IMG/VR virus record: IMGVR_UViG_3300010883_027240
Location: 6,843 to 70,842 of that record
Length of the DNA stretch: 64,000 bases
Strand: one strand, 5' to 3'
DNA from: a virus
Shown here: positions 2,498-20,186 of the stretch, one piece after another
How the letters are laid out: each line of letters opens with the position of its first letter
Position numbering within the stretch: position 1 is the first letter of the stretch
The notes under the pieces: generated by a model
Databases searched by the model: none
What the model was told of the DNA's origin: nothing
The model's input: the letters and a program-made list of their open reading frames with translations, nothing else
Translations under genes and position numbers: made by a program

Positions 2498-3985
2498 ATG
2501 AATAAAATATGCCTTATTACTCCACCATCACCCTTTTTATTAGACGAGCGTGTATTTATGCACATTGGGATTTTAAAGGTTGCATCTTCATTAGAGTCTA
2601 GAGGTTACAGTGTAGACTTTTTAGACTTGAGTGGGATTGATAATTATTTAACAGTAATCGAAGATTATTGTAAAGAAAATACAGTTAAGGTGTTTGGTCT
2701 GACAGCTTCAACACCACAAATTCCGTTTGCAGCAAACATTACAAGCAAAATCAAAGAAATAGTAAAAGATGCAAAAGTAATACTAGGCGGTCCTCATGTC
2801 ACACTCATGAACACAGCAGCAAAACGAGAAAAAGTAGCCGGCTTATTGAAGTCTGATAGGGCTTCAAAAGATGTTGATAAGCTAAAGTCAATCTTTGATG
2901 TGCTTGTCTGTGGTGATGGAGAGCTTACAATTTTTGAAGCCATGAAGATTGACAAAGGCATCGTAGACGCTGATGACAGGAAGTCACCATACTTTCTATC
3001 AAATCAACAATTTTCAAGTTTACCTTTGCCCGCAAGACATCTTGTAGACGTTGACTCTTACAAGTATACCATAGAAGGAAAAAAATCAACAAGTCTTATA
3101 GCTCAGCTAGGGTGCCCATTTAAGTGTTCTTTTTGTTCAGGTCGCAACTCTCCGTTTTTAAGAAAGATAAGACAGCGAAGTTCAGAATCAATAATTGAAG
3201 AAATGAGAATGCTCAACAAAGACTACGGATTTACAGGTTTTATGTTTTATGATGATGAACTTAATGTAAATAAAAACTTAATAGATTTATTGAATAGAAT
3301 AACAAGATTACAAGATGAAGTAGGTCAAGAATTTAGACTTAGAGGTTTTGTCAAAGCAGAGCTTTTTAATAATGAGCAAGCAGAAGCTATGTATAGGGCA
3401 GGTTTTAGATGGCTACTTACTGGGTTTGAGTCTGGTGATGAAAGAATTCTTAAGAATATCAAGAAGATGGCAAAGAGAGATGACAACACGCGTGCTGTCG
3501 AAATAGCAAAAAGTAATAACCTTAAAGTAAAAGCGCTTATGTCGATTGGGCATGCAGGTGAAAGTTTTGAAACTATAGAAAATACAAAAAAGTGGTTACT
3601 GGAAGCACAGCCGGAAGAGTTTGATTGTACTATTATAACAACTTATCCAGGTTCTCCATACTTTGATGATGCAATAAAAAGTGATGATCACTATGTATAT
3701 ACATCAGATCTTACAGGTGATAAGCTGTATCAGGCATCAATTGACTATTTGTCTGAGCTGGACTATTACAAAGGCGACCCAGACGGCGGCTATGTTTCTT
3801 ATGTGTGGACAGATCACATTACACCGAAAGAGCTTGTGTCTGCAAGAGATAATTTAGAAAAAGAAGTTAGAGAAAGCCTGGGAATAAATTTTAATTCAGC
3901 GCGCCCAGCTCTAAAATATGAACATTCTATGGGTATGGGAAATATAGAAATACCTGATTTTATTCTAAGGAAATCTTCAAAATGA
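2498..3985 (+). CDS. Cobalamin-dependent (class B) radical SAM enzyme, putative methyltransferase
   Basis: N-terminal B12-binding domain (IGILKVASSL, VILGGPHVT, VCGDGE), CxxxCxxC motif GCPFKCSFC, then FYDDE, GFESGD and YPGS. Confidence 0.9.
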   Translation: MNKICLITPPSPFLLDERVFMHIGILKVASSLESRGYSVDFLDLSGIDNYLTVIEDYCKENTVKVFGLTASTPQIPFAANITSKIKEIVKDAKVILGGPHVTLMNTAAKREKVAGLLKSDRASKDVDKLKSIFDVLVCGDGELTIFEAMKIDKGIVDADDRKSPYFLSNQQFSSLPLPARHLVDVDSYKYTIEGKKSTSLIAQLGCPFKCSFCSGRNSPFLRKIRQRSSESIIEEMRMLNKDYGFTGFMFYDDELNVNKNLIDLLNRITRLQDEVGQEFRLRGFVKAELFNNEQAEAMYRAGFRWLLTGFESGDERILKNIKKMAKRDDNTRAVEIAKSNNLKVKALMSIGHAGESFETIENTKKWLLEAQPEEFDCTIITTYPGSPYFDDAIKSDDHYVYTSDLTGDKLYQASIDYLSELDYYKGDPDGGYVSYVWTDHITPKELVSARDNLEKEVRESLGINFNSARPALKYEHSMGMGNIEIPDFILRKSSK

Positions 3986-4653
3986 AACTCACATTAAAGA
4001 CTATAAATTTTGAAGATTTTACAAAAGAAGCAACATCAGACAAGATCATTCAAGTTAAAAAGAAAAGAGAAAGAGCTGTTTATTACTTGCCAAAGAAGAG
4101 GCTTTTTTTCAAGACTTGGGTTAAAAACTGGACACAGTCTGAGATAACTAATTACGGAGTAGAGACAGGTTTTTATAATCAAAAAAATGCTAACTCTCTT
4201 TGTGCTGTGTTGTTTGATGAATCAGGTCCGAGGGGTTATGTGCAACATGCAGGAGAATCAGCTGTTGCGAAAGGAAAAAGTGATAAATGCTGGGAGTATT
4301 TTGTAACTAAGACAACGCTAGATCAGCGAAAAAAATTTATCCATAACATTCTAGAAAATTCAATTAGAGTAAAGGGTACGTACACTGATCTTGCGCCTTC
4401 CAATGTAATTTTTTATCAAGACAGGATCAATCTTATAGACTTCGAGTCATTTAGAAGTTTTGATCTTATATTCAATAGTAAAAGAGCAGACTTTGAAAAA
4501 TTCGAACTTGATGCTTGGTGGAAGCCTGTTGAGACTGCAAAAAGAGATGCTAATAAATATATTAAAGAATATTTTGAAAAGTGCTTGGACATAAAATTTG
4601 ATTTTAATATGAATTCTGAAGTCAACTTTAAGAAAGCCATGAACTTAATATAA
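3982..4653 (+). CDS. Protein-kinase-like fold phosphotransferase (putative sugar/cyclitol kinase)
   Basis: Catalytic loop YTDLAPSNV followed by the metal-binding motif LIDFES; upstream FFKT could supply the ATP lysine. Confidence 0.6.
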   Translation: MKLTLKTINFEDFTKEATSDKIIQVKKKRERAVYYLPKKRLFFKTWVKNWTQSEITNYGVETGFYNQKNANSLCAVLFDESGPRGYVQHAGESAVAKGKSDKCWEYFVTKTTLDQRKKFIHNILENSIRVKGTYTDLAPSNVIFYQDRINLIDFESFRSFDLIFNSKRADFEKFELDAWWKPVETAKRDANKYIKEYFEKCLDIKFDFNMNSEVNFKKAMNLI

Positions 4654-4668
4654 AGATAGGAAAGTACT

Positions 4669-5760
4669 TTGAAGTTAGCTTTTTACATATTTGGAACTAC
4701 AAATTTTCAAGACATGTTTCCAATAATATTTTCATCAATAAGAGATGAAGAAGCTTGCTGGGTTTGTTTTTTTGATATTTTTAATGCAAAAAGACAGCTT
4801 TATAATTATTCAGAAGAAGAAGTGAAAGTATTTTTTGAAGAAAAATGCAAAGAACTTAACTTAAAAGTACCAAAGATAAATTTTTATCGTCATAATGATC
4901 AAGAAAAATTAAATAGAGACTATCAATCTTTTAGTCCTGACTTTATCTTTGCTCAAGAAATTAAGCCAAAGTCAACTTACTGGTACCCGCCAACAAAAGC
5001 AAAAGTTATTCATCTTGCGTGGTGGGATGAGTCACACCATTTGAAAGATAATAAGCATTTAAAGCCACACATATCAATACTAAAGCAGAAAGAAGACAAA
5101 AGGTTTTATCAAAAATACCATACAAGATATTTTGGTGATCTTAGACTAGAACACTTGAAATATAGCAAAGCATCTGTAGGCAATAAAAAAAGATGCTTTA
5201 TACCAGAAACTTATATGAGAATCAATCAAGACTATGCTGAAATAAACAAAGAGCTTATCAGTTTCTATAATCAGCTTTTTAAATTCTTAAAAAACAAAGA
5301 CATTGAAATAGTTTGGAAAAAACGAGAGAAGGGATTCCCTAAGGGTAAATGGGCTAGTCCTTTAGACTTTACAGACACTCAGCCAGACAAGGTAATTGAG
5401 AAAGATCTAATATTTCCTTCATCCCTTGTAGATGAAGCATACCAAGCAGACTTTTGTTTTATCGTAGATGATAGCTTTGCATATTTTGACATAATAAACG
5501 TTAATTCAAATTGCTATATTCTTTACGTAAACAAGAAAAGAAAATATAAAATTGATGAATTTTTTTTAGAATATAAAAATAAGATAATAGAAATAAATGC
5601 TAAAGATAGTTGGAAAAAAATAGAAGAAGTTTGCAATCTTAAAAATAACTTTAAAAAAGAAAATTTAGTCTTAGACAACCCATCTAATAAAATTTTAAAG
5701 TACTGTAGAGAAATTATAAAAAATGAAAAAAATAGCAGTAATACCGATAAAGACAAATAA
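4669..5760 (+). CDS. Hypothetical protein, possible GT-B fold transferase
   Basis: 363-aa ORF with a TTG start, inside the operon. The alternating beta/alpha pattern is only weakly suggestive of GT-B. Confidence 0.4.
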   Translation: MKLAFYIFGTTNFQDMFPIIFSSIRDEEACWVCFFDIFNAKRQLYNYSEEEVKVFFEEKCKELNLKVPKINFYRHNDQEKLNRDYQSFSPDFIFAQEIKPKSTYWYPPTKAKVIHLAWWDESHHLKDNKHLKPHISILKQKEDKRFYQKYHTRYFGDLRLEHLKYSKASVGNKKRCFIPETYMRINQDYAEINKELISFYNQLFKFLKNKDIEIVWKKREKGFPKGKWASPLDFTDTQPDKVIEKDLIFPSSLVDEAYQADFCFIVDDSFAYFDIINVNSNCYILYVNKKRKYKIDEFFLEYKNKIIEINAKDSWKKIEEVCNLKNNFKKENLVLDNPSNKILKYCREIIKNEKNSSNTDKDK

Positions 5761-6373
5761 CCAAAGACTCCAGGGTAAAAATACCATGGTGCTGGGTGAA
5801 AAACCCCTTTATCAACATTTGTTTGATACGATTACAAGTTGTCACAATATAGATGAAGTATACGTAGATAGCTCAGATAAATCAATACTTAAAATCGCAA
5901 AAGATTTTGGTTTAAGCACTTTTTTAAGAGACGAAAGTTTAAATGGCCCAGCTACGTCTGGAAATGATCTTATTAAAAATTTTTTAAACCAAATTGACTG
6001 CGATATACTGGGTCAATTTTTTGTAACTACACCTTTTTTAACTGCGAAAACAATAGACAGATCTTTTGAAATACTTGAAGAAAATGATCATATGGATTCT
6101 TGCTTTGGTCTTTATGAAGTCCATGATAGATTTTGGATTGATAATAAGCCTGTTAATCATGAAATGAAAAAACTTGTAGGTACACAGTACATGAAACCAC
6201 TTAAACGCGAAGCAGGATTCTATGTGTTTAGAAAAAGACCGTTTCTGAAAGAGTGTTCAAGAATAACTGATAGCTTCTGTACATTTGATGTAAAACCTAA
6301 CGAGTGTATTGACATTGATACAATAGAAGATTTTTTATATGCAGAAACAATTTACAACAACATTGCGAAGTAA
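5723..6373 (+). CDS. Cytidylyltransferase, CMP-NeuAc/CMP-ulosonate synthetase family
   Basis: IPIKTNNQRLQGKN...LGEKPL, VYVDSS, TTPFL and ECIDIDTIEDF match NeuA/KdsB-family motifs. Confidence 0.88.
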   Translation: MKKIAVIPIKTNNQRLQGKNTMVLGEKPLYQHLFDTITSCHNIDEVYVDSSDKSILKIAKDFGLSTFLRDESLNGPATSGNDLIKNFLNQIDCDILGQFFVTTPFLTAKTIDRSFEILEENDHMDSCFGLYEVHDRFWIDNKPVNHEMKKLVGTQYMKPLKREAGFYVFRKRPFLKECSRITDSFCTFDVKPNECIDIDTIEDFLYAETIYNNIAK

Positions 6374-7531
6374 ATGAAAATTAGAAGATACAGATTAAAA
6401 TACTCAAAAAAAGATATTGAATTTGTTAATAAACATGTAAAGAAGTTGCTTAATTCTGGGTATCTCACAGACGGTGGTCCCTATGTTGCAAATCTTGAAA
6501 AAATGTGGAAAGATTTTAACGGATCTAGTAATGCTATTGCAGTAAGTAGCTGTACTTCAGGTCTGGAGTGTATTCTTAGGGCAGTTGGAATAGAAGGTCA
6601 TAGTGTGATTGTACCTGCTTATACTTTTATTGCCTCTGTAATGTCAATACACAATTGTAACGGAACACCAATATATGCAGATATTTCAAAAGATACGTTA
6701 GGGTTAAGTTTAGAAAGTATCAAAAAAGCTATCAGGAAAGATACAAAAGCTGTAATGATTGTACATGTAGGCGGTATTATCACAGATGAAATTAATAAAA
6801 TTAGAAAGTACTGCGACAATAAAAATATATTCTTAATAGAAGATGCAGCATGCGCGCACGGAGCAGAATTTAATGGCACGAAGTCTGGAAATTTTGGCCA
6901 TGCTGCATGTTTTTCTTTCCACCACTCAAAAGTTTTAACGTCAGGCGAGGGAGGTATTGTAACAACAGCCTCAGATGACTTGGCAGAAAAAATTAGAAGG
7001 AACAGGGCTATTGGTCTAGATCGATCTATTAACAACTGGGAGTCGTTTAATGTGGGCAGTAATTCAAAGATGTCAGAGCTTACTGCTATTTTAGGAATAC
7101 TACATGTTAAGAATGCAGAAAAAATAATTAATGAAAGAAGAGAAATAGCAAAAATGTATGATTCTTTGATAGCTTTTAAAAGTGACGTTTCAGCTTTCAA
7201 AATACCTCAAAAAACAAAGTCAGGATATTATAAGTACTTTTTAAGAACTACTCCTGAAACTGGCATTTCATTGTCATTATTTCTAAAAAGTAAGGGAATT
7301 GATCTTCCTCCAAAAGCGTATAGCTATACTTGTGACCAGCAAGGGGTGAGCAAAATAATGAAGTGTTCAACTTCTGGTAATTTAGAAAATTCAAAACATA
7401 TGGTAGCAAATCATATTTGTCTACCAATGTATAACGGTCTAAAGAAAAAAGAAATTAAGTATATTGTTAGATGCATAAATCAATTTTTAGAGGAATCAAG
7501 TGAAGATAATTTCAACAATAAAAAATTATGA
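6374..7531 (+). CDS. DegT/DnrJ/EryC1/StrS family PLP-dependent aminotransferase
   Basis: AVSSCTSGL, VPAYTFIAS, IEDAACAHG, FSFHHSKVLTSGEGG (PLP lysine), KMSEL and ICLPMY. Confidence 0.95.
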   Translation: MKIRRYRLKYSKKDIEFVNKHVKKLLNSGYLTDGGPYVANLEKMWKDFNGSSNAIAVSSCTSGLECILRAVGIEGHSVIVPAYTFIASVMSIHNCNGTPIYADISKDTLGLSLESIKKAIRKDTKAVMIVHVGGIITDEINKIRKYCDNKNIFLIEDAACAHGAEFNGTKSGNFGHAACFSFHHSKVLTSGEGGIVTTASDDLAEKIRRNRAIGLDRSINNWESFNVGSNSKMSELTAILGILHVKNAEKIINERREIAKMYDSLIAFKSDVSAFKIPQKTKSGYYKYFLRTTPETGISLSLFLKSKGIDLPPKAYSYTCDQQGVSKIMKCSTSGNLENSKHMVANHICLPMYNGLKKKEIKYIVRCINQFLEESSEDNFNNKKL

Positions 7532-8561
7532 AGTTCACTTTGGTGAAAGCCTACCCCTTGATGAAGACTACTTTATAATAGACAAGAATGTCTATAACTT
7601 GCATAGAAAAAAACTATCAAGTATAAATAAGAATAGAATTTATCTAGTTGACGCTGACGAAAAAGAAAAGTCTTTTAGAAGGTGTGCTGACCATATTGAA
7701 AGTCTTATTTCTTTGGGCTTGCGAAGAGGGCACACAGTTGCCGCCATCGGCGGTGGGATCATTCAAGATCTTTCTGGATTTGTAGCATCAATAATATACA
7801 GAGGTGTTGACTGGAATTTTTATCCAACAACGCTTTTGTCACAATGTGATAGTTGTATTGGTGGAAAAACATCAATAAATTTATCAGGTTCTAAAAATAC
7901 TGTAGGAAATTTCAACCCACCTAACAAGGTAATACTGAATAAAAAGTTTTTAGATACACTTGCAACACAAGAAATACAGTCTGGACTCGGTGAGATTTTA
8001 AAAGTGATGGTAATTGACAAAAAAGATAGAATAAAAACAAATGAGTTTTTGTTATGTGTTGAAAATTCTAGAATAAAAACAGGTGTATTGAAAGCGGCCC
8101 TTAAAATAAAAAAAGAGATTATTGAAAAAGATGAATTTGACAAAGGTGAAAGAAACGTTATGAACTACGGCCATACATTTGGTCACGCAATCGAGTCTAT
8201 AACTAGTTTCAATGTACCTCACGGAATCTCAGTCGGTATCGGGATTAAAATAGCAAACAGTATCTCTGAACATTTAAACTTAGTAGACAAAGAAAAAATC
8301 AAAGAAATCAATAATAGTGTTAACTTTTTTGTAGAAAATAATCAACACCACGTAGACTATTTTTTAAAAAGCTTTGATACAACAAGATACTTAAAGTGTT
8401 TATCAAAAGATAAAAAGAATACAGATAATGATAATTTAACATGTATTCTTTTAGATTCAAACGGGTCACCATTTAAAACAAAAATAAGCAACGTAAGATT
8501 AAATGGAATTCTAGAAAAAAATATTAAAAGCTGGCTCGGAAACAAAAATGAAGATACCTAA
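7500..8561 (+). CDS. 3-dehydroquinate synthase-family sugar-phosphate cyclase (AroB-related)
   Basis: GGGIIQD, RG..PTTLLSQCDSCIGGKTSIN, KN.VG.F..P, GLGEILK, RNVMNYGHTFGHAIES, HG and DKK. Confidence 0.93.
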   Translation: MKIISTIKNYEVHFGESLPLDEDYFIIDKNVYNLHRKKLSSINKNRIYLVDADEKEKSFRRCADHIESLISLGLRRGHTVAAIGGGIIQDLSGFVASIIYRGVDWNFYPTTLLSQCDSCIGGKTSINLSGSKNTVGNFNPPNKVILNKKFLDTLATQEIQSGLGEILKVMVIDKKDRIKTNEFLLCVENSRIKTGVLKAALKIKKEIIEKDEFDKGERNVMNYGHTFGHAIESITSFNVPHGISVGIGIKIANSISEHLNLVDKEKIKEINNSVNFFVENNQHHVDYFLKSFDTTRYLKCLSKDKKNTDNDNLTCILLDSNGSPFKTKISNVRLNGILEKNIKSWLGNKNEDT

Positions 8562-9360
8562 ATTTAAAAACTTAAGAATTGAAATAAATTCTGACTGTAA
8601 TAGAAGGTGCCAGTTTTGCCCAAGAGACAAAGATGATACAAGATGGAAAGTTGATAAAAATAACAAAAAAAAGCTAGTATACAAACTAATGAAAGATGAG
8701 TTAGTTTATTCAATTTTAGATCAAAATGTCTCTCAAGGCTTTAATGCAGCTGTAGGGTTTGATTTTTATAATGAACCTACTATGGACGACCGCCTTTTTA
8801 AATTTTTAGAATTTACATTAAACACCGGCTGCAAAACAGAAATTGTAACAAACGGTGATACAATCAAAAAAGACAAAGACTATGCTCATGAATTTTTTAA
8901 ACGTGTATCATTCACTAATATATCACTATACGATTATAGAGATCTGGAGGGCAGAAAAAAGCTCATGTCTTGGTGGGAAGATTATCTTGCAGACTTGAAA
9001 ATTTCAAAACATAGGTATAGACTAGTAGGAGAATATTTTAACTTTGGGAATAGGGCTGGTACTGTAGATCGTAAAGATAAGTTTATGAATGGAGCACACT
9101 TAGATAGTAAAGTACCTCTCAGCGCAAATTGCGCAAAAATTCATGCAAAGATGAATATAAGATACGACGGTGAGATACCTATTTGCTGTGAAGATGCACT
9201 AGTTCAACACTCACTAGGTAATGTTAATAAAAATACACTATCGGAGATATGGTATGGTCCAGAAATGATTAATGCAACAATGTTATTAGCAAAAGGCAAA
9301 AGATCAGCCATTAGCCCATGTGACAAATGTGTAAAGAGCATAAGACCCATAATACTCTAA
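8548..9360 (+). CDS. Radical SAM/Twitch(SPASM) protein, BtrN-like dehydrogenase
   Basis: IEINSDCNRRCQFCP, FYNEP, TNGD, NRAG, and auxiliary cluster C...PICCED...GN...IW...CDKC. The 270-aa length matches the short BtrN-type architecture. Confidence 0.85.
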   Translation: MKIPKFKNLRIEINSDCNRRCQFCPRDKDDTRWKVDKNNKKKLVYKLMKDELVYSILDQNVSQGFNAAVGFDFYNEPTMDDRLFKFLEFTLNTGCKTEIVTNGDTIKKDKDYAHEFFKRVSFTNISLYDYRDLEGRKKLMSWWEDYLADLKISKHRYRLVGEYFNFGNRAGTVDRKDKFMNGAHLDSKVPLSANCAKIHAKMNIRYDGEIPICCEDALVQHSLGNVNKNTLSEIWYGPEMINATMLLAKGKRSAISPCDKCVKSIRPIIL

Positions 9361-9369
9361 GGGATAAAA

Positions 9370-9957
9370 ATGGAAATTGATTTTGAAGACATAGAAACAA
9401 AATGCAAAGAAGCGTCAGCAACAGACGAATATGAAATTTTAGTTAATAAAGTAAACAAAGCAAAGCGAATATTCTTAATAGGGAATGGAGGTCTTCATTT
9501 TGTTGCTAGTCATATGGCGACAGACTTATCTAGACTGATACCTGACAAAGTTGTATACTCATTTGATAGTGTAGGATTTATCACATCAAATTCAAACGAT
9601 CACGGGTTCGAGCAAGTTTTTGTAAGATGGTTAGCGACAGTTGCTGAAATTGAAGATCCCAGTGAATGTTTAGTAGTGGGCCTTTCATGCTCAGGAAACT
9701 CTTCAAATGTTATTAATGCACTACACTGGGCTGATAGTAAAAAGATGTCAACATTTTTAATAAGCGGGGAGGAGTCTGAAAATTTAAAGAAAGAAATTGA
9801 TGAATTGCCAATAAGGTGCAAATATTTTCACACAGTTGAAGTATCAATTTTGATGATTTTTTATGATCTTATTCACAGAACAGGCAATCACTGCCCAGCA
9901 ATTAGAGACGAAAAAGATAGATTATCTGGCTCTCCCCTTCGTAGTCTCAAGGTCTAG
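9370..9957 (+). CDS. SIS-domain sugar-phosphate isomerase, GmhA-like
   Basis: IFLIGNGG...SH, NDHGFEQVF and GLSCSGNSSNV match phosphoheptose isomerase motifs. Confidence 0.85.
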   Translation: MEIDFEDIETKCKEASATDEYEILVNKVNKAKRIFLIGNGGLHFVASHMATDLSRLIPDKVVYSFDSVGFITSNSNDHGFEQVFVRWLATVAEIEDPSECLVVGLSCSGNSSNVINALHWADSKKMSTFLISGEESENLKKEIDELPIRCKYFHTVEVSILMIFYDLIHRTGNHCPAIRDEKDRLSGSPLRSLKV

Positions 9958-9959
9958 AA

Positions 9960-10742
9960 ATGAAAAATTTAGATTTTAATAAGATAATGATTGTTAATTT
10001 TGCTGTTGAAGAACGGACAGTAGAATTAAGTAATTATTGTTTTGAAAGACTGGGTTTTAAGAATGTCATTACTTTGCAAGGTACTGATGGCTTTCGTGAT
10101 AAATTTTTAAATTTTGCTAAAATTGCTGTTGAGAGTGATTGTGATTGTTTTATAAGAACTGATGCTGACAGGCTTGTTTTTGACGGGATATTTGACTTAA
10201 TTCTAAAATATTATCAGAATAATGATGCTATGTGTGTAGAAGGACTTTGTTTTGACTACTTTATGAACAAGTTGAGAGGGGCGACACCGCATGTTTTTTC
10301 TAGAAGCATACTAGAAATGCTAGATAATGATAATGAATTGATGCCAAATAGTCAAAAACCTGAATCACACTTTGTTGCAAAAGTAGCCCCGACAGATAGT
10401 AAAAAGTTTCTCAGTGTAAAAACTTTAACAAATCTTCATGAGTATGAACAGTATCCTAGCAAAGTATGTAATGCCTACTTAAACAGAATTTACAGAGGTC
10501 ATAAAGGATACTATGATGAGTCACACTTGAAATCTCTGCCTGAAGTATATCAAAATGCGATAAATCAGGCAAAGTATTTTGCTCTTAAACATGAAAGCAA
10601 AAATACAATGGATCATATTGACTTTAAGTTTTTAGACGAAGGATTTCATAAAATTTCAAGTGATCAAATAGAATCACTTTATGAACATTATTTAAACCTT
10701 TATAAGCATATCAATAAAGGTTTAGAAAACAAGAAAGGATAG
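9960..10742 (+). CDS. Putative GT-A fold glycosyltransferase
   Basis: DxD motif FIRTDADRLV after a hydrophobic strand; cluster context. Confidence 0.5.
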   Translation: MKNLDFNKIMIVNFAVEERTVELSNYCFERLGFKNVITLQGTDGFRDKFLNFAKIAVESDCDCFIRTDADRLVFDGIFDLILKYYQNNDAMCVEGLCFDYFMNKLRGATPHVFSRSILEMLDNDNELMPNSQKPESHFVAKVAPTDSKKFLSVKTLTNLHEYEQYPSKVCNAYLNRIYRGHKGYYDESHLKSLPEVYQNAINQAKYFALKHESKNTMDHIDFKFLDEGFHKISSDQIESLYEHYLNLYKHINKGLENKKG

Positions 10743-10747
10743 TTAAG

Positions 10748-11596
10748 ATGAAATTAGGAATAGTAGGAAACGGGTTTGTAGGCTCTGCAATACTTCATGG
10801 GTTCATACTTCACGTCGACGACGTAATAATATATGACAGCAATCCAAAGAGATCAACACACTCTTTAGAAGATCTGGCAAATGAAGCTGATGTAATTTTT
10901 ATTTGTGTTCCGACACCAATGTTTGAGTCTGGAGAATGCGATTTATCAATTGTTAAAAATGTTACGAGTGAACTAACGAAATATGAAAATGCAAAAAATA
11001 AAGTTATTGTTATAAAATCAACAGTAGTACCTGGAACAGTTGAATCAATTGCAAAAGAATATCCAGATATGAACTTTGTATTCAATCCAGAGTTTTTAAC
11101 AGAAAGAAAAGCACGTCTAGACTTTATCAATACTTCAAGAATTGTTCTAGGCAGTAATAAACCAGAAGCTCTGCAAGTTGTAGAAGCTTTGTATAGACTA
11201 AGATTCCCGTATACAAAGATCATCAAAACAGACTTTGGAACAGCACAGCTAATAAAATATATGGCCAATTGCTTCTTCGCCACAAAAGTTTCTTTTATGA
11301 ACGAGATGTATCAAGTATGTGAAGCGATAAACGGAGACTGGAACACAGCTGTTGAGGGACTAATTACAGATGGAAGGATAGGAAATTCTCACATTGATGT
11401 TCCAGGTCACGATGGTGATTTTGGTTTCGGTGGTAAATGCTTTCCAAAAGACTTAAACGCAATGATTAAGAAGGCCGAATCATTAGGGGTCAAGCCTGTT
11501 GTTATGAAAGGTGCATGGAAAAAGAACGAAGAAGTTAGAAAAGACTTAGACTGGTTTGATATACCCGGCGCCGTGTCAAAACAAGATGAAAGCTAA
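10748..11596 (+). CDS. UDP-glucose/GDP-mannose dehydrogenase family protein (short form lacking the C-terminal domain)
   Basis: GIVGNGFVG, ICVPTP, IKSTVVPG, FNPEFL, KYMAN and GFGGKCFPKD. Confidence 0.93.
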   Translation: MKLGIVGNGFVGSAILHGFILHVDDVIIYDSNPKRSTHSLEDLANEADVIFICVPTPMFESGECDLSIVKNVTSELTKYENAKNKVIVIKSTVVPGTVESIAKEYPDMNFVFNPEFLTERKARLDFINTSRIVLGSNKPEALQVVEALYRLRFPYTKIIKTDFGTAQLIKYMANCFFATKVSFMNEMYQVCEAINGDWNTAVEGLITDGRIGNSHIDVPGHDGDFGFGGKCFPKDLNAMIKKAESLGVKPVVMKGAWKKNEEVRKDLDWFDIPGAVSKQDES

Positions 11597-11616: not shown

Positions 11617-12510
11617 ATGATAGCATTAGTAACAGGAGGGTGCGGATTTATAGGAAGTCACGTTGTTGACAAACTTGTCGAACTAGGTCATGAAGTAAGA
11701 GTTATTGATGATTTATCAGCAAACGAAAATGAAAAATTTTATTTTAATGAAAAAGCCACATATTACAAAAAAGACATAGCTAAAGACGATTGCTCAGACT
11801 GCTTTATTAATGTTGAATGTGTTTTTCATTTAGCAGCAAGAAGTAGAATACAACCTACAATAAAAGAACCAAGTGAATGTTTTGAAGTTAACGTAGTTGG
11901 TACGCAGAGGGTGCTAGAATGGTCTCGGTTGAACTCTGCAAAGAGAGTAGTATATTCTAGCACGTCTTCGCTGTATGGCCAACAGAATACAATCCCATTC
12001 CAACCAAATATGCCAACAGATTGCTTAAATCCATATTCAATGTCAAAATGGATGGGAGAGCAAGTATGTAAACTCTATAATCAGATGTATAATCTTCCAT
12101 GCATAGTACTAAGATACTTTAATGTTTTTGGTCCTAGAGAACCAGTTAGAGGCGTCTATGCTCCAGTAATAGGCCTATTTAAAAGACAGCATGCTGCAGG
12201 CAAAGAAATGACAATTGTGGGAGACGGCCTACAACGTCGAGATTTTACATTCATAGATGATGTAGTGAGTGCAAATATTTGTGCAATGAATGCTGATGCA
12301 AAGCTTATCCCATACAACATTTATAATATTGGTACAGGAAAAAACTATTCGATAATTGAAGTTGCAGAAATGATAGGGGACAAACTTAAGCTTATTGAAA
12401 AAAGACCTGCTGAAGTTCGTGAAACATTAGCAGACATCAAAACAACATTGAAAGACTTGAACTGGCGCCCCTCTTCTAGTTCGCTAGAATATTTTATAAA
12501 TTCTTATTAG
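11617..12510 (+). CDS. NAD-dependent epimerase/dehydratase (extended SDR)
   Basis: VTGGCGFIGSH, FHLAA, YSMSK (YxxxK), LRYFNVFGP and RDFTFIDDVV. Confidence 0.95.
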   Translation: MIALVTGGCGFIGSHVVDKLVELGHEVRVIDDLSANENEKFYFNEKATYYKKDIAKDDCSDCFINVECVFHLAARSRIQPTIKEPSECFEVNVVGTQRVLEWSRLNSAKRVVYSSTSSLYGQQNTIPFQPNMPTDCLNPYSMSKWMGEQVCKLYNQMYNLPCIVLRYFNVFGPREPVRGVYAPVIGLFKRQHAAGKEMTIVGDGLQRRDFTFIDDVVSANICAMNADAKLIPYNIYNIGTGKNYSIIEVAEMIGDKLKLIEKRPAEVRETLADIKTTLKDLNWRPSSSSLEYFINSY

Positions 12511-12558: not shown

Positions 12559-13395
12559 ATGAAAGATTTTCCAACTGGCAAAAAGCATGTTTCTTTTTCT
12601 GAGATAAAAGAATGGGCAGAATGCTCATGGCGACACAAGCTAGCAAAAATAGACAAAATTGATATGTTTGAGCCATCACCATATCTTGGTTTTGGAACTG
12701 CAGTACATGAGGGCTGCGAAAATATGTTAGAAGGAAAAGATCTAAATAAAGATAAGTTACTAAATGATATCAGGAATGATTTTAAAAAGCACGGATTTGA
12801 TGATCCTGAATGGGTTGCAAAACAACCCGGGTGGTATAAAAAATCATCTAATGTCGGCGTAGAGAAATGGTGTGAATGGGCCGAGAATATGTGGGCCGAA
12901 GTCCCCAGCTATCTTGATAAAGAGTTTCCGGGATGGGAAACAGTAAAGGCAGAAGAATATCTTTATGAAGAGATCGAAGGTAAACCTGTAAAATTTAAAG
13001 GATTTGTTGATGCTATTATTAAGGTTCCAAAAAAACGAGGCGAGGGATACAGTTACTGGATTCTTGACTGGAAGACAGCAGGAGCGTACGGCTGGCGAAG
13101 AGATAAAAAACAAGATTTCAAACTTCAGGCTCAGCTAGTTCTGTATAAATATTTTTATTCAAAGAAATATAGCATTGAGCTTAAAGATATTCGCTGTGCT
13201 TTTATTCTTCTTAAACGTGGTGGAAAGATTGGTAATATTGTTGATATTGTCCCAGTTTCTGTCGGACCCAAGACACTAGAAAAGGGCATAAAACTAATGA
13301 ATAATATGATAACATCTGTTTCTAATGGAATGTTTTTAAAAAATAGAAATTCTTGTAAGTTTTGCACGTATCAAGACACTGAGTACTGCACATAA
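12559..13395 (+). CDS. PD-(D/E)XK nuclease, RecB/Cas4-like with Fe-S cysteines
   Basis: SFSE...C, FGTAVH, GFVD...DWKT, QLVLY and C-terminal CKFC.....C. Confidence 0.88.
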   Translation: MKDFPTGKKHVSFSEIKEWAECSWRHKLAKIDKIDMFEPSPYLGFGTAVHEGCENMLEGKDLNKDKLLNDIRNDFKKHGFDDPEWVAKQPGWYKKSSNVGVEKWCEWAENMWAEVPSYLDKEFPGWETVKAEEYLYEEIEGKPVKFKGFVDAIIKVPKKRGEGYSYWILDWKTAGAYGWRRDKKQDFKLQAQLVLYKYFYSKKYSIELKDIRCAFILLKRGGKIGNIVDIVPVSVGPKTLEKGIKLMNNMITSVSNGMFLKNRNSCKFCTYQDTEYCT

Positions 13396-13452: not shown

Positions 13453-14715
13453 ATGACTGAAGACGGAAAGTTTAAAGTTTTAGTTTTGTCAGACCACGCA
13501 CTTTCAACTAGTGGTGTTGGAACACAAACTAGACATTTAATAGAAGGGCTTTTGGCTAAAGGCAGCTGGTCATTTAGACAGTTTGGTGCAGCATTAAAGC
13601 ACAATGATTATAACACTATTGTTGTAAATAGTGATTTTATAATCAAGCCTATCGATGGTTTTGGAGACGAAAATCTTATTAGACAAACTTTGATTTCTGA
13701 AAAACCTGACGTGCTTTTTATCTTTACAGACCCAAGATTTTTTACATGGCTTTTTAAAATAGAAGATGAAATTCATCAAGTTTGTCCTATAGTATGGTGG
13801 CATGTTTGGGATAATTACCCATATCCTAAATTTAATAATAACTTCTATCAATCGACTGATACAATTAATTGCCACTCTCATATGACTTATACTATGATTA
13901 ATGAAGAAGGCACACATTCTGACAAGGTTAATTTTATTCCACATGCAATCCCAGATAACCACTACTTTAGAATGACAGAAGAAGCAAGGGCAAGTAATAA
14001 AGCAGTACTATTAGGTAAAGATAAAAAAGATAACTTTGTAGCCATTTGGGTAAATAGAAATGCTAAAAGAAAACGCCCAGCAGATGTCCTTCTATCTTGG
14101 AAAATGTTCTTAGATAAGCTTTATGAAAAAGAAGGTCATAGAAATGCAACTTTAGTCATGCATACAGAGCCTCTAGATCAAGAAGGTCCAAACTTATTTG
14201 CAGTGGCAGAAAACTTAAACTTGGGAGACAGTGTATTTTTCTCTAGAGATAGAGTTGACTTTGATCAAATGAACACACTTTATAATATAAGTGATTTTTG
14301 TTATAGTTTGTCATATGCTGAAGGGTTTGGGCTTTCAACTTTGGAATCAATGATGACAGGTACACCGATAATAGCACCCTGTACGGGTGGTTTAACAAGG
14401 CAGGTAGTCGATCATAGAGATGGGTCACATAATGGTGTTGCACTTCCTATAGAATGCAAAACTTTAGTAGGCAGTCAGTCTGTTCCTTATATATATGAAG
14501 ATTATGTATCCAACGAAACGGCATCATCAGCCATACTTGATTTTTATGAAAAATCTAAAGTCAAAGAGTTTAAGGAAGAATTAAGTAAAAAAGTGCTTAG
14601 CTACGTAGCAGAAGAATTTTCATATCAAAAAACAATAGATTTGTGGCATGAAAGTATGCTTTCTTCTATAGAAGCATTTAAGACAAGAAAAAATTGGGAC
14701 AATATTAGTCTTTGA
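13453..14715 (+). CDS. Glycosyltransferase family 4
   Basis: SGVGTQ, NRNAKRK and SYAEGFGLSTLESMMTGTP. Confidence 0.92.
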   Translation: MTEDGKFKVLVLSDHALSTSGVGTQTRHLIEGLLAKGSWSFRQFGAALKHNDYNTIVVNSDFIIKPIDGFGDENLIRQTLISEKPDVLFIFTDPRFFTWLFKIEDEIHQVCPIVWWHVWDNYPYPKFNNNFYQSTDTINCHSHMTYTMINEEGTHSDKVNFIPHAIPDNHYFRMTEEARASNKAVLLGKDKKDNFVAIWVNRNAKRKRPADVLLSWKMFLDKLYEKEGHRNATLVMHTEPLDQEGPNLFAVAENLNLGDSVFFSRDRVDFDQMNTLYNISDFCYSLSYAEGFGLSTLESMMTGTPIIAPCTGGLTRQVVDHRDGSHNGVALPIECKTLVGSQSVPYIYEDYVSNETASSAILDFYEKSKVKEFKEELSKKVLSYVAEEFSYQKTIDLWHESMLSSIEAFKTRKNWDNISL

Positions 14716-14722
14716 GGTTTAA

Positions 14723-15901
14723 ATGAAAAAAGTTTTATTAAGAGCACCATTACTAACAAATAGTGGTTATGGAGTGCATTCTAGACAGATATACATGTGG
14801 CTTGAAGAAAAAGAAGACATAGAACTATATGTTGAATGTCTTCATTGGGGTTTAACGTCATGGGTAGTTAATACTGAAACAGAAGAAGGGCTATTTGGCA
14901 GAATAGTATCACGATCACTTTCAGACCTGTCAACGATAGACTTTGATTTATCATTCCAAGTTCAACTTCCAGATGAGTGGGATAGTAAAATAGCTAAGAA
15001 GAATGTTGGTGTTACGGCGCTTGTTGAGACAGACATATGTAATCTTGAGTGGATTAAAAAAATAAATGAGATGGATCATATTATAGTTCCATCTACGTTT
15101 ACAAAAAATGTAATCAAAGATACAGCAAAATTTATTAGTGCAAAAACTCCAATATCAGTTGTTCCAGAATGGTTTAATCAAGCTTTGCTAAATAAGCAAG
15201 AGCTTGAATCTTGTTACGATAGTAGATATAATTTTACTACACAGAAAAACTTACTGCTTGTTGGGACTTTAACATCTCAAAACGTCGAAGATGATAGAAA
15301 GAATTTGGTCAATACAATTGCTTGGACCCTTGAAGCATTCAAGGACAATCCAGACGTTGGAATTATTGCAAAGGTTTGTGTTGGAAAATCAACTTCAGAA
15401 GACAGAAGTATTACTTTAGACTTTTTTAATAAAATAATTAATACTTTTAGACAAGGACCCTTTCCAAGAGTACACTTAATCCACGGGCACATGACTGACA
15501 AAGAGATTGCCGCACTCTTTGCTCACAAGTCTATAGTTGGTTACATTTCAGCAACAAGAGGCGAAGGGTATGGTCTACCTCTTGTTGATGCAGCAGCAGC
15601 AGGAGTGCCTGTTGTGGCAACAAACTGGTCAGGTCACTTAGACTTTTTAGATAAGAAATTTATAAAAGTTGATTATGACTTAGTTAAAATAAGCGATTCT
15701 CGAGTAGACGGGAGAATATTTGTTACAAATGCACAATGGGCAGAGCCAAGAAAAGAAAGCTTCCAAGAAGGTATATTAAAACTTTTAAAAGGCAGAGAAA
15801 ATTGTTTAAAAAAATCTGCAGAATTAAAAAAGAAGGTTAGAAAGAAGTTTTCTAAAAAATCAATAACACAACTTTACGATAAAGTATTACAAGAGGTATA
15901 A
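14723..15901 (+). CDS. Glycosyltransferase family 4
   Basis: SGYGVHSR, VPSTF, DRKN and TRGEGYGLPLVDAAAAGVPVVATNWSGHLDF. Confidence 0.92.
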   Translation: MKKVLLRAPLLTNSGYGVHSRQIYMWLEEKEDIELYVECLHWGLTSWVVNTETEEGLFGRIVSRSLSDLSTIDFDLSFQVQLPDEWDSKIAKKNVGVTALVETDICNLEWIKKINEMDHIIVPSTFTKNVIKDTAKFISAKTPISVVPEWFNQALLNKQELESCYDSRYNFTTQKNLLLVGTLTSQNVEDDRKNLVNTIAWTLEAFKDNPDVGIIAKVCVGKSTSEDRSITLDFFNKIINTFRQGPFPRVHLIHGHMTDKEIAALFAHKSIVGYISATRGEGYGLPLVDAAAAGVPVVATNWSGHLDFLDKKFIKVDYDLVKISDSRVDGRIFVTNAQWAEPRKESFQEGILKLLKGRENCLKKSAELKKKVRKKFSKKSITQLYDKVLQEV

Positions 15902-19220: not shown

Positions 19221-20186
19221 ATGGGAACTCTTACTTACTTGGAATTGATAGATCCAGAAAGTAATATATTTACAGAAAGGGTACAAGAAGCACTAAGGAC
19301 AGATGGCGATAGTGCTTCTTTAGGCGTTCCTGGTATCGCGGCAGTTGGTCCAGCTGCAGAGTTTCCTGTATGGTATACTGAAGAAAGTCTTGATCAAAAA
19401 GCTGATAATTTAGAATTTGCTACACAGCAAGCAGTATTTTGGAATGCCTTTCATTCTAGTACAATGGCAGCGCTCGATGTAATTCCAATGGCCGGTGCAC
19501 TAAACCCTTTTGGTGTTATTGATCCGACTTTTCCAATTCCAGCACCGAAAATAATTGCAATACTGACTGATCTTGGGATAGATCCAATCCCAGAGTGGTT
19601 GGAGACAAATTTGCCTGCACTTGCAACACCCGATCTTATTCCTGCATTTGCAGGCTTTGCTATATGCGAAAACGATAAGCTTGCAAAAGCTTTCGTTGAT
19701 ATTGATTCCACTTTAGATGAAGACACAGTAAAAGAAAAACTTTCAAATCATTGCGGCTTTAACATTCCAGAGCTCCCCAGTCTGGATTTTGAAATACCAA
19801 TACCAGGCCTAGATTTAGAACCCTTGTTTGGCCCACCAGAGTTTAACGGTCTTTTGTGGAAACTTATTGCAGTATTTGAAAAAATCCCAGGTCTCTTAAT
19901 CAGCTTCATGACGCCTTCTTTTGATTTAGCAGCAGAGCTCTTGAAAGGAATTCCTGGTTTTATTATGTGGATAATAGAATTTTTATTTGAGACAATTTTA
20001 GAGCTCTTCATGGCGGTCTTTGAGTTTCTTAAACAGTGTGTCATATTAATTGCTTGCGTAATTGTCTGGATTAAAGATGTCGTCGCAGCAATTGTAGTAT
20101 CAATAATAGGCTTTCTTGTAGGTCCTGGGCTCATAGTAACTTTTGCAGCTGTCTTACTAGGCTTGATAGGTCTTCCGGGTTTATAA
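19221..20186 (+). CDS. Pro-rich acidic protein with a strongly hydrophobic C-terminus (hypothetical)
   Basis: The last ~100 aa are amphipathic/hydrophobic helices (IVVSIIGFLVGPGLIVTFAAVLLGLIGLPGL). Confidence 0.7.
   Translation: MGTLTYLELIDPESNIFTERVQEALRTDGDSASLGVPGIAAVGPAAEFPVWYTEESLDQKADNLEFATQQAVFWNAFHSSTMAALDVIPMAGALNPFGVIDPTFPIPAPKIIAILTDLGIDPIPEWLETNLPALATPDLIPAFAGFAICENDKLAKAFVDIDSTLDEDTVKEKLSNHCGFNIPELPSLDFEIPIPGLDLEPLFGPPEFNGLLWKLIAVFEKIPGLLISFMTPSFDLAAELLKGIPGFIMWIIEFLFETILELFMAVFEFLKQCVILIACVIVWIKDVVAAIVVSIIGFLVGPGLIVTFAAVLLGLIGLPGL

Follow-up and report, generated by a model that had tools for sequence, protein, structure and literature searches.

The 2-deoxystreptamine unit of butirosin is reportedly made by a trio of enzymes, the 2-deoxy-scyllo-inosose synthase (DOIS) BtrC, the DegT-family aminotransferase BtrS/BtrR and the radical S-adenosylmethionine (SAM) dehydrogenase BtrN. 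Members of the same three superfamilies were found in adjacent genes of the viral DNA analyzed here (the window), a stretch of 64,000 nucleotides that corresponds to bases 6843-70842 of the 70.8-kb IMG/VR virus record IMGVR_UViG_3300010883_027240 (record G000, 28% complete according to CheckV). In the window these genes are part of a glycan island. Large phages with many glycosyltransferase and sugar-nucleotide genes, including some of the Kdo (3-deoxy-D-manno-octulosonate) and heptose types, have been described (PMC12801897; 10.1101/2023.12.21.572611), and the available excerpts of both sources make no mention of an enzyme of the 3-dehydroquinate synthase (DHQS) family.

According to the excerpt available, a cultured cyanophage carries kdsA, kdsB, a DegT-family 'AHBA_syn' gene, a radical SAM gene and an amidinotransferase gene, and its authors described the DegT-family/radical SAM/amidinotransferase set as 'antibiotic synthesis genes' of unclear role (PMC12801897). 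The other source, again in excerpt, reports phage clusters that install Kdo, heptose and uronic acids (HexA) on 5-hydroxymethylcytosine (5hmC) (10.1101/2023.12.21.572611). Searches of the literature yielded no phage sugar-phosphate cyclase, no phage 2-deoxy-scyllo-inosose pathway, and nothing relevant on dehydroquinate synthase in O-antigen clusters, on a carbocyclic DHQS/cytidylyltransferase, on a heptulosonic cytidylyltransferase or on BtrN in phages. An earlier note on this DNA, made from its letters alone, had supposed that no phage pathway of this type was described, and none with a cyclase was found in the literature. The genes in question are the following:

2498-3985, + strand: B12-binding-domain radical SAM enzyme (Pfam B12-binding and Radical_SAM; CX3CX2C at 206)
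3982-4653, + strand: small protein-kinase-like (PKL) protein, 223 amino acids (aa)
4669-5760, + strand: GT-B-fold transferase, 363 aa, candidate transferase for a CMP-activated unit
5723-6373, + strand: CTP_transf_3 cytidylyltransferase (PF02348) of the CMP-ulosonic-acid synthetase type
6374-7531, + strand: DegT/DnrJ/EryC1 aminotransferase, pyridoxal phosphate (PLP)-dependent (Pfam, 292 bits)
7500-8561, + strand: AroB-related NAD/metal enzyme of the TIGR04425 radiation (DHQ_synthase N and C domains)
8548-9360, + strand: BtrN-like radical SAM/Twitch protein, 270 aa, probable radical SAM alcohol dehydrogenase (Radical_SAM and SPASM)
9370-9957, + strand: GmhA-like SIS-domain sugar-phosphate isomerase

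The trio consists of three overlapping open reading frames (ORFs), with 32 bases shared by the DegT and AroB-related genes and 14 bases by the AroB-related and radical SAM genes. The families and the arrangement that the earlier note had assigned to it were confirmed by Pfam/NCBIfam matches and by the coordinates. Its translational coupling and the adjacency of a nucleotide-activating enzyme and of transferases were borne out as well; the GT-B gene overlaps the cytidylyltransferase gene by 38 bases. A blastn search of 2498-9957 against GenBank phages gave no match. For comparison there are three related phage records, G001 (locus L032, 24.6 kb), G002 (locus L001, 67.6 kb) and G003 (locus L031); like G000, all are fragments (18-36% complete over the four records). 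We tentatively favor, at a little short of an even call, the view that the product is an amino-bearing C7 acid sugar activated with CMP, whether or not it is carbocyclic, and that it goes into a glycan directed by the phage rather than serving as an antibiotic of the aminoglycoside type.

The AroB-related protein scored 375.4 bits on TIGR04425 (cut-off 400), a family that bears the name 'AroB-related putative sugar phosphate phospholyase (cyclizing)' and on which no paper was found in the literature search. On the aroB model TIGR01357 the score was 257.1 bits, below the equivalog cut-off of 305. The TIGR04425 scores of its relatives were 373.9 bits in G002, 367.1 bits in G003 and 441.3 bits in the bacterial locus L008. 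When solved structures in the PDB were searched, DHQSs came first (157.5 to 107 bits), followed by DOIS BtrC (105.2), the 2-epi-5-epi-valiolone synthase (EEVS) ValA (4p53; 84.9) and the desmethyl-4-deoxygadusol synthase (DDGS) 5tpr (61.4). The GTG start at 7500 is backed by homologues that start at the same residue.

In a 16-row alignment that included E. coli AroB, GGK, KN, E165, R218, N222, H225, H229 and H241 were invariant, the DKK motif was conserved, and lysine K168 of the E..K motif was conserved without being invariant. The R-x3-N-x-G-H-x2-G-H block of DHQS is intact in the AroB-related protein. From DHQS crystallography, we take the invariant residues to be the metal ligands, the catalytic His and the binders of the phosphate and C1 carboxylate of 3-deoxy-D-arabino-heptulosonate 7-phosphate (DAHP); DOIS presumably carries Glu in place of the Asn of this block, whose Arg would bind the DAHP carboxylate. 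As every catalytic and ligand motif in common with E. coli AroB is retained, the putative substrate is a ulosonate phosphate resembling DAHP. Kdo8P was also considered as a substrate and was rejected, by reasoning only, because in the pyranose form its phosphate is not beta to a carbon that DHQS chemistry can activate.

A maximum-likelihood tree of 39 rows, which contains no DOIS or EEVS reference sequences, placed the canonical AroBs in a clade of their own (support 100/99) and the AroB-related protein in a clade of eight viral and metagenomic sequences (100/99) within the TIGR04425-like rows. A separate aroB above the cut-off was found in all five bacterial genomes with a TIGR04425 member. 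The protein thus shares fold and motifs with AroB (TIGR01357) and has DHQSs as its best solved relatives, but it stays below the equivalog cut-off, falls in a separate clade, belongs to a paralogue family and lies, with its relatives, in glycan loci and not in shikimate operons. Judged by sequence, it belongs to an uncharacterized paralogous family with a DHQS-type pocket, neither a housekeeping DHQS nor DOIS/EEVS-like. The analogy with BtrC/DOIS or EEVS that the earlier note had drawn for the cyclase was hence given up, in view of the TIGR04425 assignment, the intact DHQS motifs and the order of scores (DHQS 157, DOIS 105, ValA 85 and DDGS 61 bits).

Genes of the TIGR04425 type are spread widely over the polysaccharide loci of bacteria and have thousands of metagenomic relatives, and members were found in SAR11, Bacteroidota, Coxiellaceae, cyanobacteria and other bacteria. 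A tblastn search of 50,697 GenBank phage records revealed no TIGR04425-like gene; 15 records matched at up to 34% identity, the annotated ones as aroB/3-dehydroquinate synthase, and two of the 15 are Salmonella genome contigs. A third DHQS-family paralogue (389 aa), on a very long tree branch, was observed in a Verrucomicrobiae metagenome-assembled genome (L123, G009:C46). It has Asp at the position of the DHQS-motif Asn and the Arg shifted by one residue, its top PDB matches are again DHQSs, and it may represent another type of sugar phosphate cyclase.

The radical SAM protein (8548-9360) had two BtrN entries as its only significant matches in the PDB sequence search (E 4e-10, full length); the other seven of the nine rows had E values of at least 0.08. 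A structure model computed from 29 homologues reached a mean pLDDT (predicted local distance difference test) of 88.8. With this model, the top Foldseek match was BtrN 4m7t (E 2e-14, TM-scores 0.72/0.79, about 19% identity in the structural alignment), followed by DesII, anSME and SuiB near E 1e-6. The CX3CX2C motif together with C195, C213, C214, C258 and C261 is conserved across the 29 family members, and the predicted architecture is that of BtrN, short and with one radical SAM cluster and one Twitch auxiliary cluster. The BtrN likeness proposed in the earlier note was therefore upheld by both searches, and the protein is a probable radical SAM alcohol dehydrogenase. The likeness to butirosin ends there in several respects: the window protein is BtrN-sized and has the cysteines of both clusters and BtrN as its top fold match, but the identity is low, the cyclase is DHQS-like, BtrR is a mid-rank and partial match of the aminotransferase, and the context is a glycan island with a CMP-type cytidylyltransferase.

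The close family of this radical SAM protein is small (43 clusters, 47-79% identical, from marine sources), and two of the 43 clusters carry the JGI label 2-deoxy-scyllo-inosamine dehydrogenase. A single-protein scan of viral contigs found nothing, but an alignment-based scan found distant relatives (24-30% identity) in 241 of 306 candidate IMG/VR stretches. In GenBank phages, a distant relative was seen only in Campylobacter CP220-type phages (6 records), amid other radical SAM genes, an amidinotransferase and an aminotransferase, and in one faecal contig. In the region 107712-122440 of Campylobacter phage vB_CjeM_WX1 (L116), four or more radical SAM genes accompany an amidinotransferase gene and an aminotransferase gene, and the product of a gene annotated 'BtrN protein' is 27% identical to the radical SAM protein of the window.

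The neighborhoods of distant relatives were compared at 78 IMG/VR loci, with one representative annotated per neighbor cluster. The most frequent neighbors were a protein resembling short-chain dehydrogenases/reductases (SDRs) (27 loci), GT8 (25), a GT29 sialyltransferase-like protein (23), cupin (17), class I/II aminotransferase (12), the KdsA-like DAHP_synth_1 (11) and CTP_transf_3 (11). These counts tie the wider radical SAM family to sugar modules of the ulosonic-acid/sialyl type and to aminotransferases. By analogy, the pattern fits a BtrN-style role in which a secondary alcohol would be oxidized before amination or epimerization.

The DegT protein carries the PLP-lysine motif SFHHSK at residues 181-186, and this lysine marks it as an aminotransferase and not a His-type dehydratase, in agreement with the earlier note. 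Its PDB matches included perosamine synthetase (146 bits), glutamine-scyllo-inositol transaminase (146 bits, full length), KdnA (115 bits) and BtrR (2c7t; 115 bits), the last being partial, over residues 27-218 only; on the PseC model it reached 185 bits, below the cut-off of 424. The cytidylyltransferase scored 75.7 bits on Pfam PF02348 (cut-off 22.6) and stayed below the equivalog cut-offs (PseF 66.7 of 205.7; KdsB models at most 42 against 155-281). Apart from one chance row (E 0.008), its PDB matches were only NeuA-type CMP-sialic acid synthetases and KdsB. Compared with CMP-Kdo and nonulosonic acid pathways, the window shares a CTP_transf_3 protein with an adjacent GT-B, an aminotransferase in the family of KdnA, PseC and LegC, and a sister phage with a true KdsA, but it lacks KdsA or a NeuB-type synthase, has the AroB-related enzyme in that place, and scores low on PseF (67 of 206) and PseC (185 of 424).

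For the 363-aa protein (4669-5760), structural look-alikes in the ESM Atlas, where look-alikes are leads only, were DUF354, TagF-type Glyphos_transf, the Kdo transferase family, GT4 and MurG (TM 0.64-0.72), and feature look-alikes were Lept_O_ant_chp1 (46% of cluster members) and alpha-2,8-polysialyltransferase (13%). This GT-B fold ruled out a kinase at this ORF. If the kinase-like flank named in the earlier note was meant for it, the claim fell; it held for the 223-aa ORF at 3982-4653. The latter had no Pfam or NCBIfam match and belongs to an orphan family of 74 marine and viral proteins, none with a precomputed Pfam domain; its D136, N141 and D153 are invariant in an alignment. Its AlphaFold model was of moderate quality (pLDDT 68), and all 18 PDB matches found by Foldseek at E <= 0.001 were protein-kinase/pseudokinase domains or a pre-40S kinase chain (TM 0.34-0.46).

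The B12-domain radical SAM enzyme remained far below the cut-off in all its NCBIfam matches (PhpK-type 101.6 of 600; AprD4 70 of 500). Its nearest PDB entries were 9ccb, then AprD4 (6fd2, E 5e-12) and TsrM, so that by sequence it may equally be a methylase or an AprD4-like dehydratase; it is 69-82% identical in G002, G003 and locus L028. The GmhA-like SIS protein scored 63-65 bits on the NCBIfam gmhA models, below their cut-offs, and all 13 PDB matches were phosphoheptose isomerases. Its gene was rejected as proof of a sedoheptulose-7-phosphate cyclase, since it may equally serve a heptose branch together with HldA-like and GT9 genes.

The arrangement of these genes recurred in other viral sequences. 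In the diverged records G000, G002 and G003, the genes for the cytidylyltransferase, the DegT protein and the AroB-related protein follow one another in this order, abutting or overlapping (50-66% identity). The order DegT, AroB-related, radical SAM, SIS and GT-A was found at 99.6-100% protein identity in L027, a separate JGI metagenome contig, and again in G003, where the trio is 50-72% identical and the radical SAM gene starts about 80 bases downstream of the AroB-related gene (tblastn coordinates). G000, G003 and L027 thus hold both genes. Seven pairs of AroB-related and radical SAM clusters have longest contigs of equal length, which hints at further linked cases. The synteny that the earlier note had proposed to look for was hence found in L027 and G003 but broken in G002, without the radical SAM gene, and in G001, without the AroB-related and DegT genes; within these fragments the trio is not an obligate unit.

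G001 retains the kinase-like, GT-A, GT-B, CTP_transf_3 and BtrN-like genes. In place of the AroB-related and DegT genes it has a true Kdo8P synthase KdsA (330 bits, cut-off 314), with an FSA-type aldolase-CBS fusion, two SDRs and methyltransferases. This content indicates that the common module handles a Kdo-type ulosonic acid there, and that elsewhere it would be fed by the AroB-related/DegT pair. The fusion protein (L032:3497-4507), whose gene adjoins that of the true KdsA, combines a fructose-6-phosphate-aldolase/transaldolase-type domain with a CBS pair resembling the C-terminus of KpsF/GutQ, and it may be an alternative supplier of arabinose-5-phosphate.

Furthermore, the neighbors of 21 other AroB-related loci (18 bacterial, 3 viral) were clustered. 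A group of 11 loci adds a thiamine pyrophosphate (TPP) enzyme and, in most cases, a DegT/E1-like protein, an NDP-sugar dehydratase and an HpcH-like protein. A second group consists of seven loci, six bacterial and one viral (L002), all with GmhA-like SIS and CTP_transf_3 genes; the bacterial ones are from Cyclobacteriaceae, Algoriphagus, Coxiellaceae and Pelagibacteraceae (three loci). A Gfo/Idh/MocA oxidoreductase was present in 6 of the 7, a D-2-hydroxyacid dehydrogenase in 5 and an HpaI-type aldolase in 3. The window belongs with this second group by its GmhA-like SIS and CTP_transf_3 genes. Its AroB-related protein belongs to the same radiation as members above the TIGR04425 cut-off, such as that of the Algoriphagus locus L008. 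The latter locus also has a YhcH/NanQ-type anomerase homologue and an HpaI-type pyruvate aldolase.

The phage clade differs from these bacterial cassettes in lacking the classical SDR, the Gfo/Idh/MocA protein, the 2-hydroxyacid dehydrogenases and the HpaI-type aldolase, and in adding the DegT, BtrN-like radical SAM, B12-domain radical SAM and kinase-like proteins. Neither BtrN-like nor B12-domain radical SAM proteins were found in 23 AroB-related loci (20 bacterial, 3 viral; E <= 1e-4). For the second group, a route from a heptose or tetrose phosphate to an aldonic or 2-keto acid 7-phosphate, followed by the AroB-related step, reduction or amination, and CMP activation, would give every conserved gene a role and is proposed for this reason. 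In L002, a CTP_transf_3 domain is fused to a cupin domain (L002:7651-8781), and the fusion sits in a cassette of AroB-related, SIS, Gfo/Idh/MocA and 2-hydroxyacid dehydrogenase genes like the bacterial ones.

From the gene identities, folds, motif conservation, synteny and co-occurrence observed, we infer a substrate, an order of steps, CMP activation of the product and a target for the genes 3982-9957. Together these would be a module that makes an unusual acidic C7 sugar and activates it with CMP. The AroB-related enzyme would first apply DHQS-type chemistry to a DAHP-like 3-deoxy-2-ulosonate 7-phosphate (host DAHP or a close analogue), with NAD-dependent oxidation beside the phosphate-bearing carbon and then elimination of the phosphate. 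The keto product would be aminated by the DegT enzyme, and the BtrN-like protein would oxidize a further secondary alcohol, making a second amination or an epimerization possible. The CTP_transf_3 protein would then activate the C2-type tertiary hydroxyl beside the carboxylate, the adjacent GT-B would transfer the unit to a glycan, and other transferases of the island would extend this glycan. The small kinase-like protein and the B12-domain radical SAM enzyme would tailor the product.

If the full DHQS reaction takes place, for which the chances within this scheme are about even, the unit would be an amino-quinate-like carbocycle, a carba-analogue of an ulosonic acid; otherwise it would be a 7-deoxy amino ulosonic acid, which is about as likely. 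This balance follows from two points: to our knowledge all characterized members of the superfamily cyclize, and the later steps of the DHQS reaction are largely spontaneous. A bolder version is rather unlikely. In it, a DAHP-like precursor would undergo DHQS chemistry and DegT amination aided by the BtrN-like dehydrogenase, and both the phage clade and the TIGR04425 bacteria (SAR11, Bacteroidota and others) would make a CMP-activated carbocyclic unit of the amino-quinate type ('carba-Kdo/carba-sialic'), used for glycosidase-proof glycans or as a non-transferable CMP-Kdo mimic that blocks host envelope synthesis. The acceptor could be a virion protein, a host surface glycan or DNA, and a cytoplasmic acceptor is mildly favored because no membrane protein is present in the island.

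The trio occupies the middle of this island, which spans at least 22.7 kb. The 6.8 kb that precede the window (L026, G000:C1:1-7400) already consist of glycan genes, and the island continues in the window up to 15901. The flanks were as the earlier note had described them, with a B12-domain radical SAM enzyme, a cytidylyltransferase, a GmhA-like isomerase and GT4s. Genes for the baseplate wedge, the large terminase and the portal are located farther downstream, also on the + strand. The large terminase is 41% identical to that of Microcystis phage Mel-JY01, 40% to those of Flavobacterium 'immuto' myophages and 33-35% to those of T4-like cyanophages; the record is a fragment of a large uncultured marine myovirus. 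Judged by these terminase relatives, by GC content and by the AroB-related identities, SAR11, Flavobacteria and cyanobacteria are candidates for its host. Of four DNA sequencing runs, which gave short contig pieces only, X1 covers the whole stretch in pieces and may be the source sample, and X2 contains several identical pieces. The remaining features of the island are as follows:

L026, upstream of the window: GT9 heptosyltransferase-like gene
L026: HldA-like heptose-7-phosphate kinase domain (152 bits on rfaE_dom_I, below cut-off)
L026: two or three methyltransferases
L026: second radical SAM/SPASM protein, 353 aa
L026:6393-7328: GT4 glycosyltransferase (Pfam Glycos_transf_1 / Glyco_trans_1_4)
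1-486, + strand: C-terminal part of that GT4 glycosyltransferase (whole gene, L026:6393-7328; whole GT4 homologues in L028 and L032)
483-1595, + strand: UDP-galactopyranose mutase, glf (TIGR00031 364.8 bits, above the cut-off of 303.75; Pfam GLF 243 bits)
1592-2497, + strand: conserved 301-aa protein, possible transferase
9960-10742, + strand: GT-A (GT2-like) fold protein
10748-11596, + strand: short NDP-sugar dehydrogenase, 282 aa, without the C-terminal domain
11617-12510, + strand: extended-SDR NDP-sugar epimerase/dehydratase (Pfam Epimerase 194 bits)
12559-13395, + strand: PD-(D/E)XK nuclease-family protein inside the island (PDDEXK_1 67.5 bits)
13453-14715 and 14723-15901, + strand: two GT4 glycosyltransferases (Glycos_transf_1; weaker GT4-conflict matches)

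Only soluble enzymes were observed in the island: of its 27 ORFs, not one has more than a single hydrophobic segment, and no flippase, polymerase, ligase or priming transferase was found in it. Just downstream, a 321-aa protein without a Pfam family (19221-20186) has four hydrophobic segments in its C-terminal part and is the only multi-pass candidate near the island. The heptose-type genes of L026 and the GmhA-like gene of the window suggest a phage heptose branch without a recognizable GmhB or adenylyltransferase.

Several of the other products were characterized only in part. The 301-aa protein (1592-2497) had no Pfam match even at E up to 1 and a weak C-terminal PglH match (E 0.0026) as its sole NCBIfam match; it is 65-68% identical in G002, G003 and L028 and always lies between glf and the B12-domain radical SAM gene. 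The 9960-10742 protein had no Pfam match, and in the ESM Atlas it reached TM 0.54 to GT2 clusters in structure, with GT2 or GT7C as minority families among its feature look-alikes; its homologue in G002 and G003 lies between the kinase-like and GT-B genes. The 10748-11596 protein scored 193.7 bits on TIGR03026 (cut-off 189.8) over model positions 67-296 of 413, with only the N-terminal and central Pfam domains. It lacks the C-terminal UDP-binding domain, and its 81% identity in G002 and G003, two diverged relatives, suggests that this short dehydrogenase is functional and not decayed. The 11617-12510 protein was below all cut-offs (GalE 168, LegB 142, heptose epimerase 128 and dTDP-glucose dehydratase 124 bits). 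The PD-(D/E)XK gene lies between the epimerase gene and the GT4 pair, and it has the same place in G002 and G003, there after about 2 kb of extra sequence.

Several observations weigh against a CMP-activated C7 acid sugar as the product. No ulosonate synthase or aldolase was found in the window, which would leave the host to supply the substrate. The window also lacks the classical SDR, the commonest partner of AroB-related genes, which adjoins them in 18 of 21 loci. G002 (67.6 kb, a fragment) keeps the AroB-related and DegT genes without the BtrN-like gene, and G001 (24.6 kb, also a fragment) the BtrN-like gene without the other two; of 84 loci retrieved for radical SAM relatives, only 2 have an AroB-related gene within about 10 kb. 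With 375 bits, the AroB-related protein narrowly misses the TIGR04425 cut-off of 400, and this family has no member of known reaction, so that the substrate call rests on motifs and on residue roles in DHQS. The best solved relatives of the DegT protein include NDP-sugar 4-aminotransferases, and with an SDR dehydratase/epimerase gene nearby it may serve a conventional NDP-amino-sugar branch. The cytidylyltransferase could act in the heptose branch with the GmhA-like, HldA-like and GT9 genes. From chemical reasoning, a saturated carbocycle would be a poor glycosyl donor. Finally, in the excerpt available of one source, a CTP transferase, a kinase-like/HAD enzyme and a GT-B put heptose on DNA (10.1101/2023.12.21.572611).

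An alternative that we consider unlikely, although to be taken seriously, is a mosaic island in which the trio is not one pathway. The DegT enzyme would act on an NDP-4-keto-6-deoxy sugar from the SDR at 11617-12510, the BtrN-like enzyme would modify a host-derived Kdo-type sugar, the AroB-related enzyme would feed a separate branch, and adjacency would reflect packing in one late operon. The separation of the AroB-related and radical SAM genes in G002 and G001 fits this view, as does locus L028, where the radical SAM gene lies upstream of glf and away from any AroB-related gene. So do the NDP-sugar aminotransferases among the top solved relatives of DegT and the several independent sugar branches of the island (glf; the NDP-sugar dehydrogenase; the GmhA-like, HldA-like and GT9 heptose genes). 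Moreover, no orthologous DegT lies beside the AroB-related gene in the bacterial loci, where identities are at most 32% and positions vary. However, the cytidylyltransferase-DegT-AroB-related order has been kept in G000, G002 and G003 at 50-66% identity, the radical SAM gene overlaps by 14 bases in the window and follows after about 80 bases in G003, and the seven further contigs tie its family, indirectly, to AroB-related genes.

A second alternative, distinctly unlikely, concerns the target and is compatible with the chemistry of the CMP-activated C7 acid: activated sugars would be placed on hydroxymethylated phage bases as protection against host nucleases. A precedent would be the phage clusters described in the excerpt available of a preprint (10.1101/2023.12.21.572611), which combine an APH-like kinase and a cytidylyltransferase with a DNA glycosyltransferase of the GT-B type, and the lack of membrane proteins, the PD-(D/E)XK nuclease and the weak 'GT4-conflict' matches of two GT4s agree with it. 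No Tet/JBP dioxygenase or thymidylate-synthase-like hydroxymethylase was found in G000-G003, a weak negative given that these records are 18-36% complete and that the Tet_JBP search matched no control genome. The island abuts baseplate and tail genes on the same strand, which fits virion glycosylation equally well, and the number of its transferase-like genes, nine or more, suggests that a complex glycan is made, not a base adduct. In the structural region, very large ORFs at 29320-34884 (1854 aa) and 38740-43554 (1604 aa) probably encode tail or fiber proteins, and several ORFs beside them had no PHROG match.

An improbable alternative is the strict aminocyclitol route, in which the cyclase would start from glucose-6-phosphate or sedoheptulose-7-phosphate. 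Two transaminations, with a BtrN-type oxidation between them, would then yield an aminocyclitol that serves as a pseudo-sugar cap or diffuses as a molecule of the aminoglycoside type. BtrN as the sole clear solved relative of the radical SAM protein speaks for it, as do the two of 43 family clusters that JGI names 2-deoxy-scyllo-inosamine dehydrogenase, the adjacent GmhA-like isomerase, which handles sedoheptulose-7-phosphate, and the aminoglycoside enzyme AprD4 as second-nearest solved relative of the B12-domain radical SAM enzyme. The C7-cyclitol (validamycin/acarbose) pathways use an EEVS, a kinase, a nucleotidyltransferase, an aminotransferase and a pseudo-glycosyltransferase, and each step has a parallel here at superfamily level; the kinase-like protein, the nucleotidyltransferase and the GT-B of the window would match the logic of the validamycin type. 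However, ValA is a weak relative (85 bits), the nucleotidyltransferase is a CTP_transf_3 protein of the CMP-ulosonic-acid type and not of the NDP-hexose type, and the kinase is an orphan PKL protein, not ValC-type. The cyclase is nearer to DHQS than to DOIS, EEVS or DDGS and retains the Arg and Asn of the R-x3-N-x-G-H-x2-G-H motif, the BtrN-like gene also occurs in the cyclase-free Kdo module of G001, and the island showed no gene for resistance, export or self-protection. Nothing favored the diffusible aminoglycoside-like molecule that the earlier note had entertained, given the cytidylyltransferase type and the glycan-assembly contexts. Its other suggestion, a nucleotide-activated, aminated and possibly carbocyclic C7 unit for a glycan, remains a live reading, shorn of the aminocyclitol cyclase analogy.

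That the gene is an auxiliary metabolic gene, an ordinary 3-dehydroquinate synthase boosting host shikimate and aromatic amino acid synthesis, is hardly credible despite the full DHQS motif set and the 257 bits on the aroB model, because the protein is below the aroB cut-off of 305, scores higher on TIGR04425 and falls outside the canonical AroB clade, because bacteria with a family member have a separate aroB (5 of 5 genomes), and because the gene is embedded in and overlaps glycan genes, with no other shikimate gene in the window.

Although phages are known to encode glycan pathways, neither the literature searched nor the 50,697 GenBank phage records yielded one that includes an enzyme of the DHQS family. 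The short BtrN-like radical SAM proteins are common in phage sugar modules (241 of 306 IMG/VR stretches), which suggests a general viral route to amino sugars by radical SAM oxidation and subsequent transamination. The compact phage version, with its defined partners, is a convenient entry to what the TIGR04425 family makes. Should the product turn out to be a carbocyclic or 7-deoxy amino ulosonic acid, microbes abundant in the ocean and the viruses that infect them would have a surface sugar of a new class, with a bearing on phage-host recognition.

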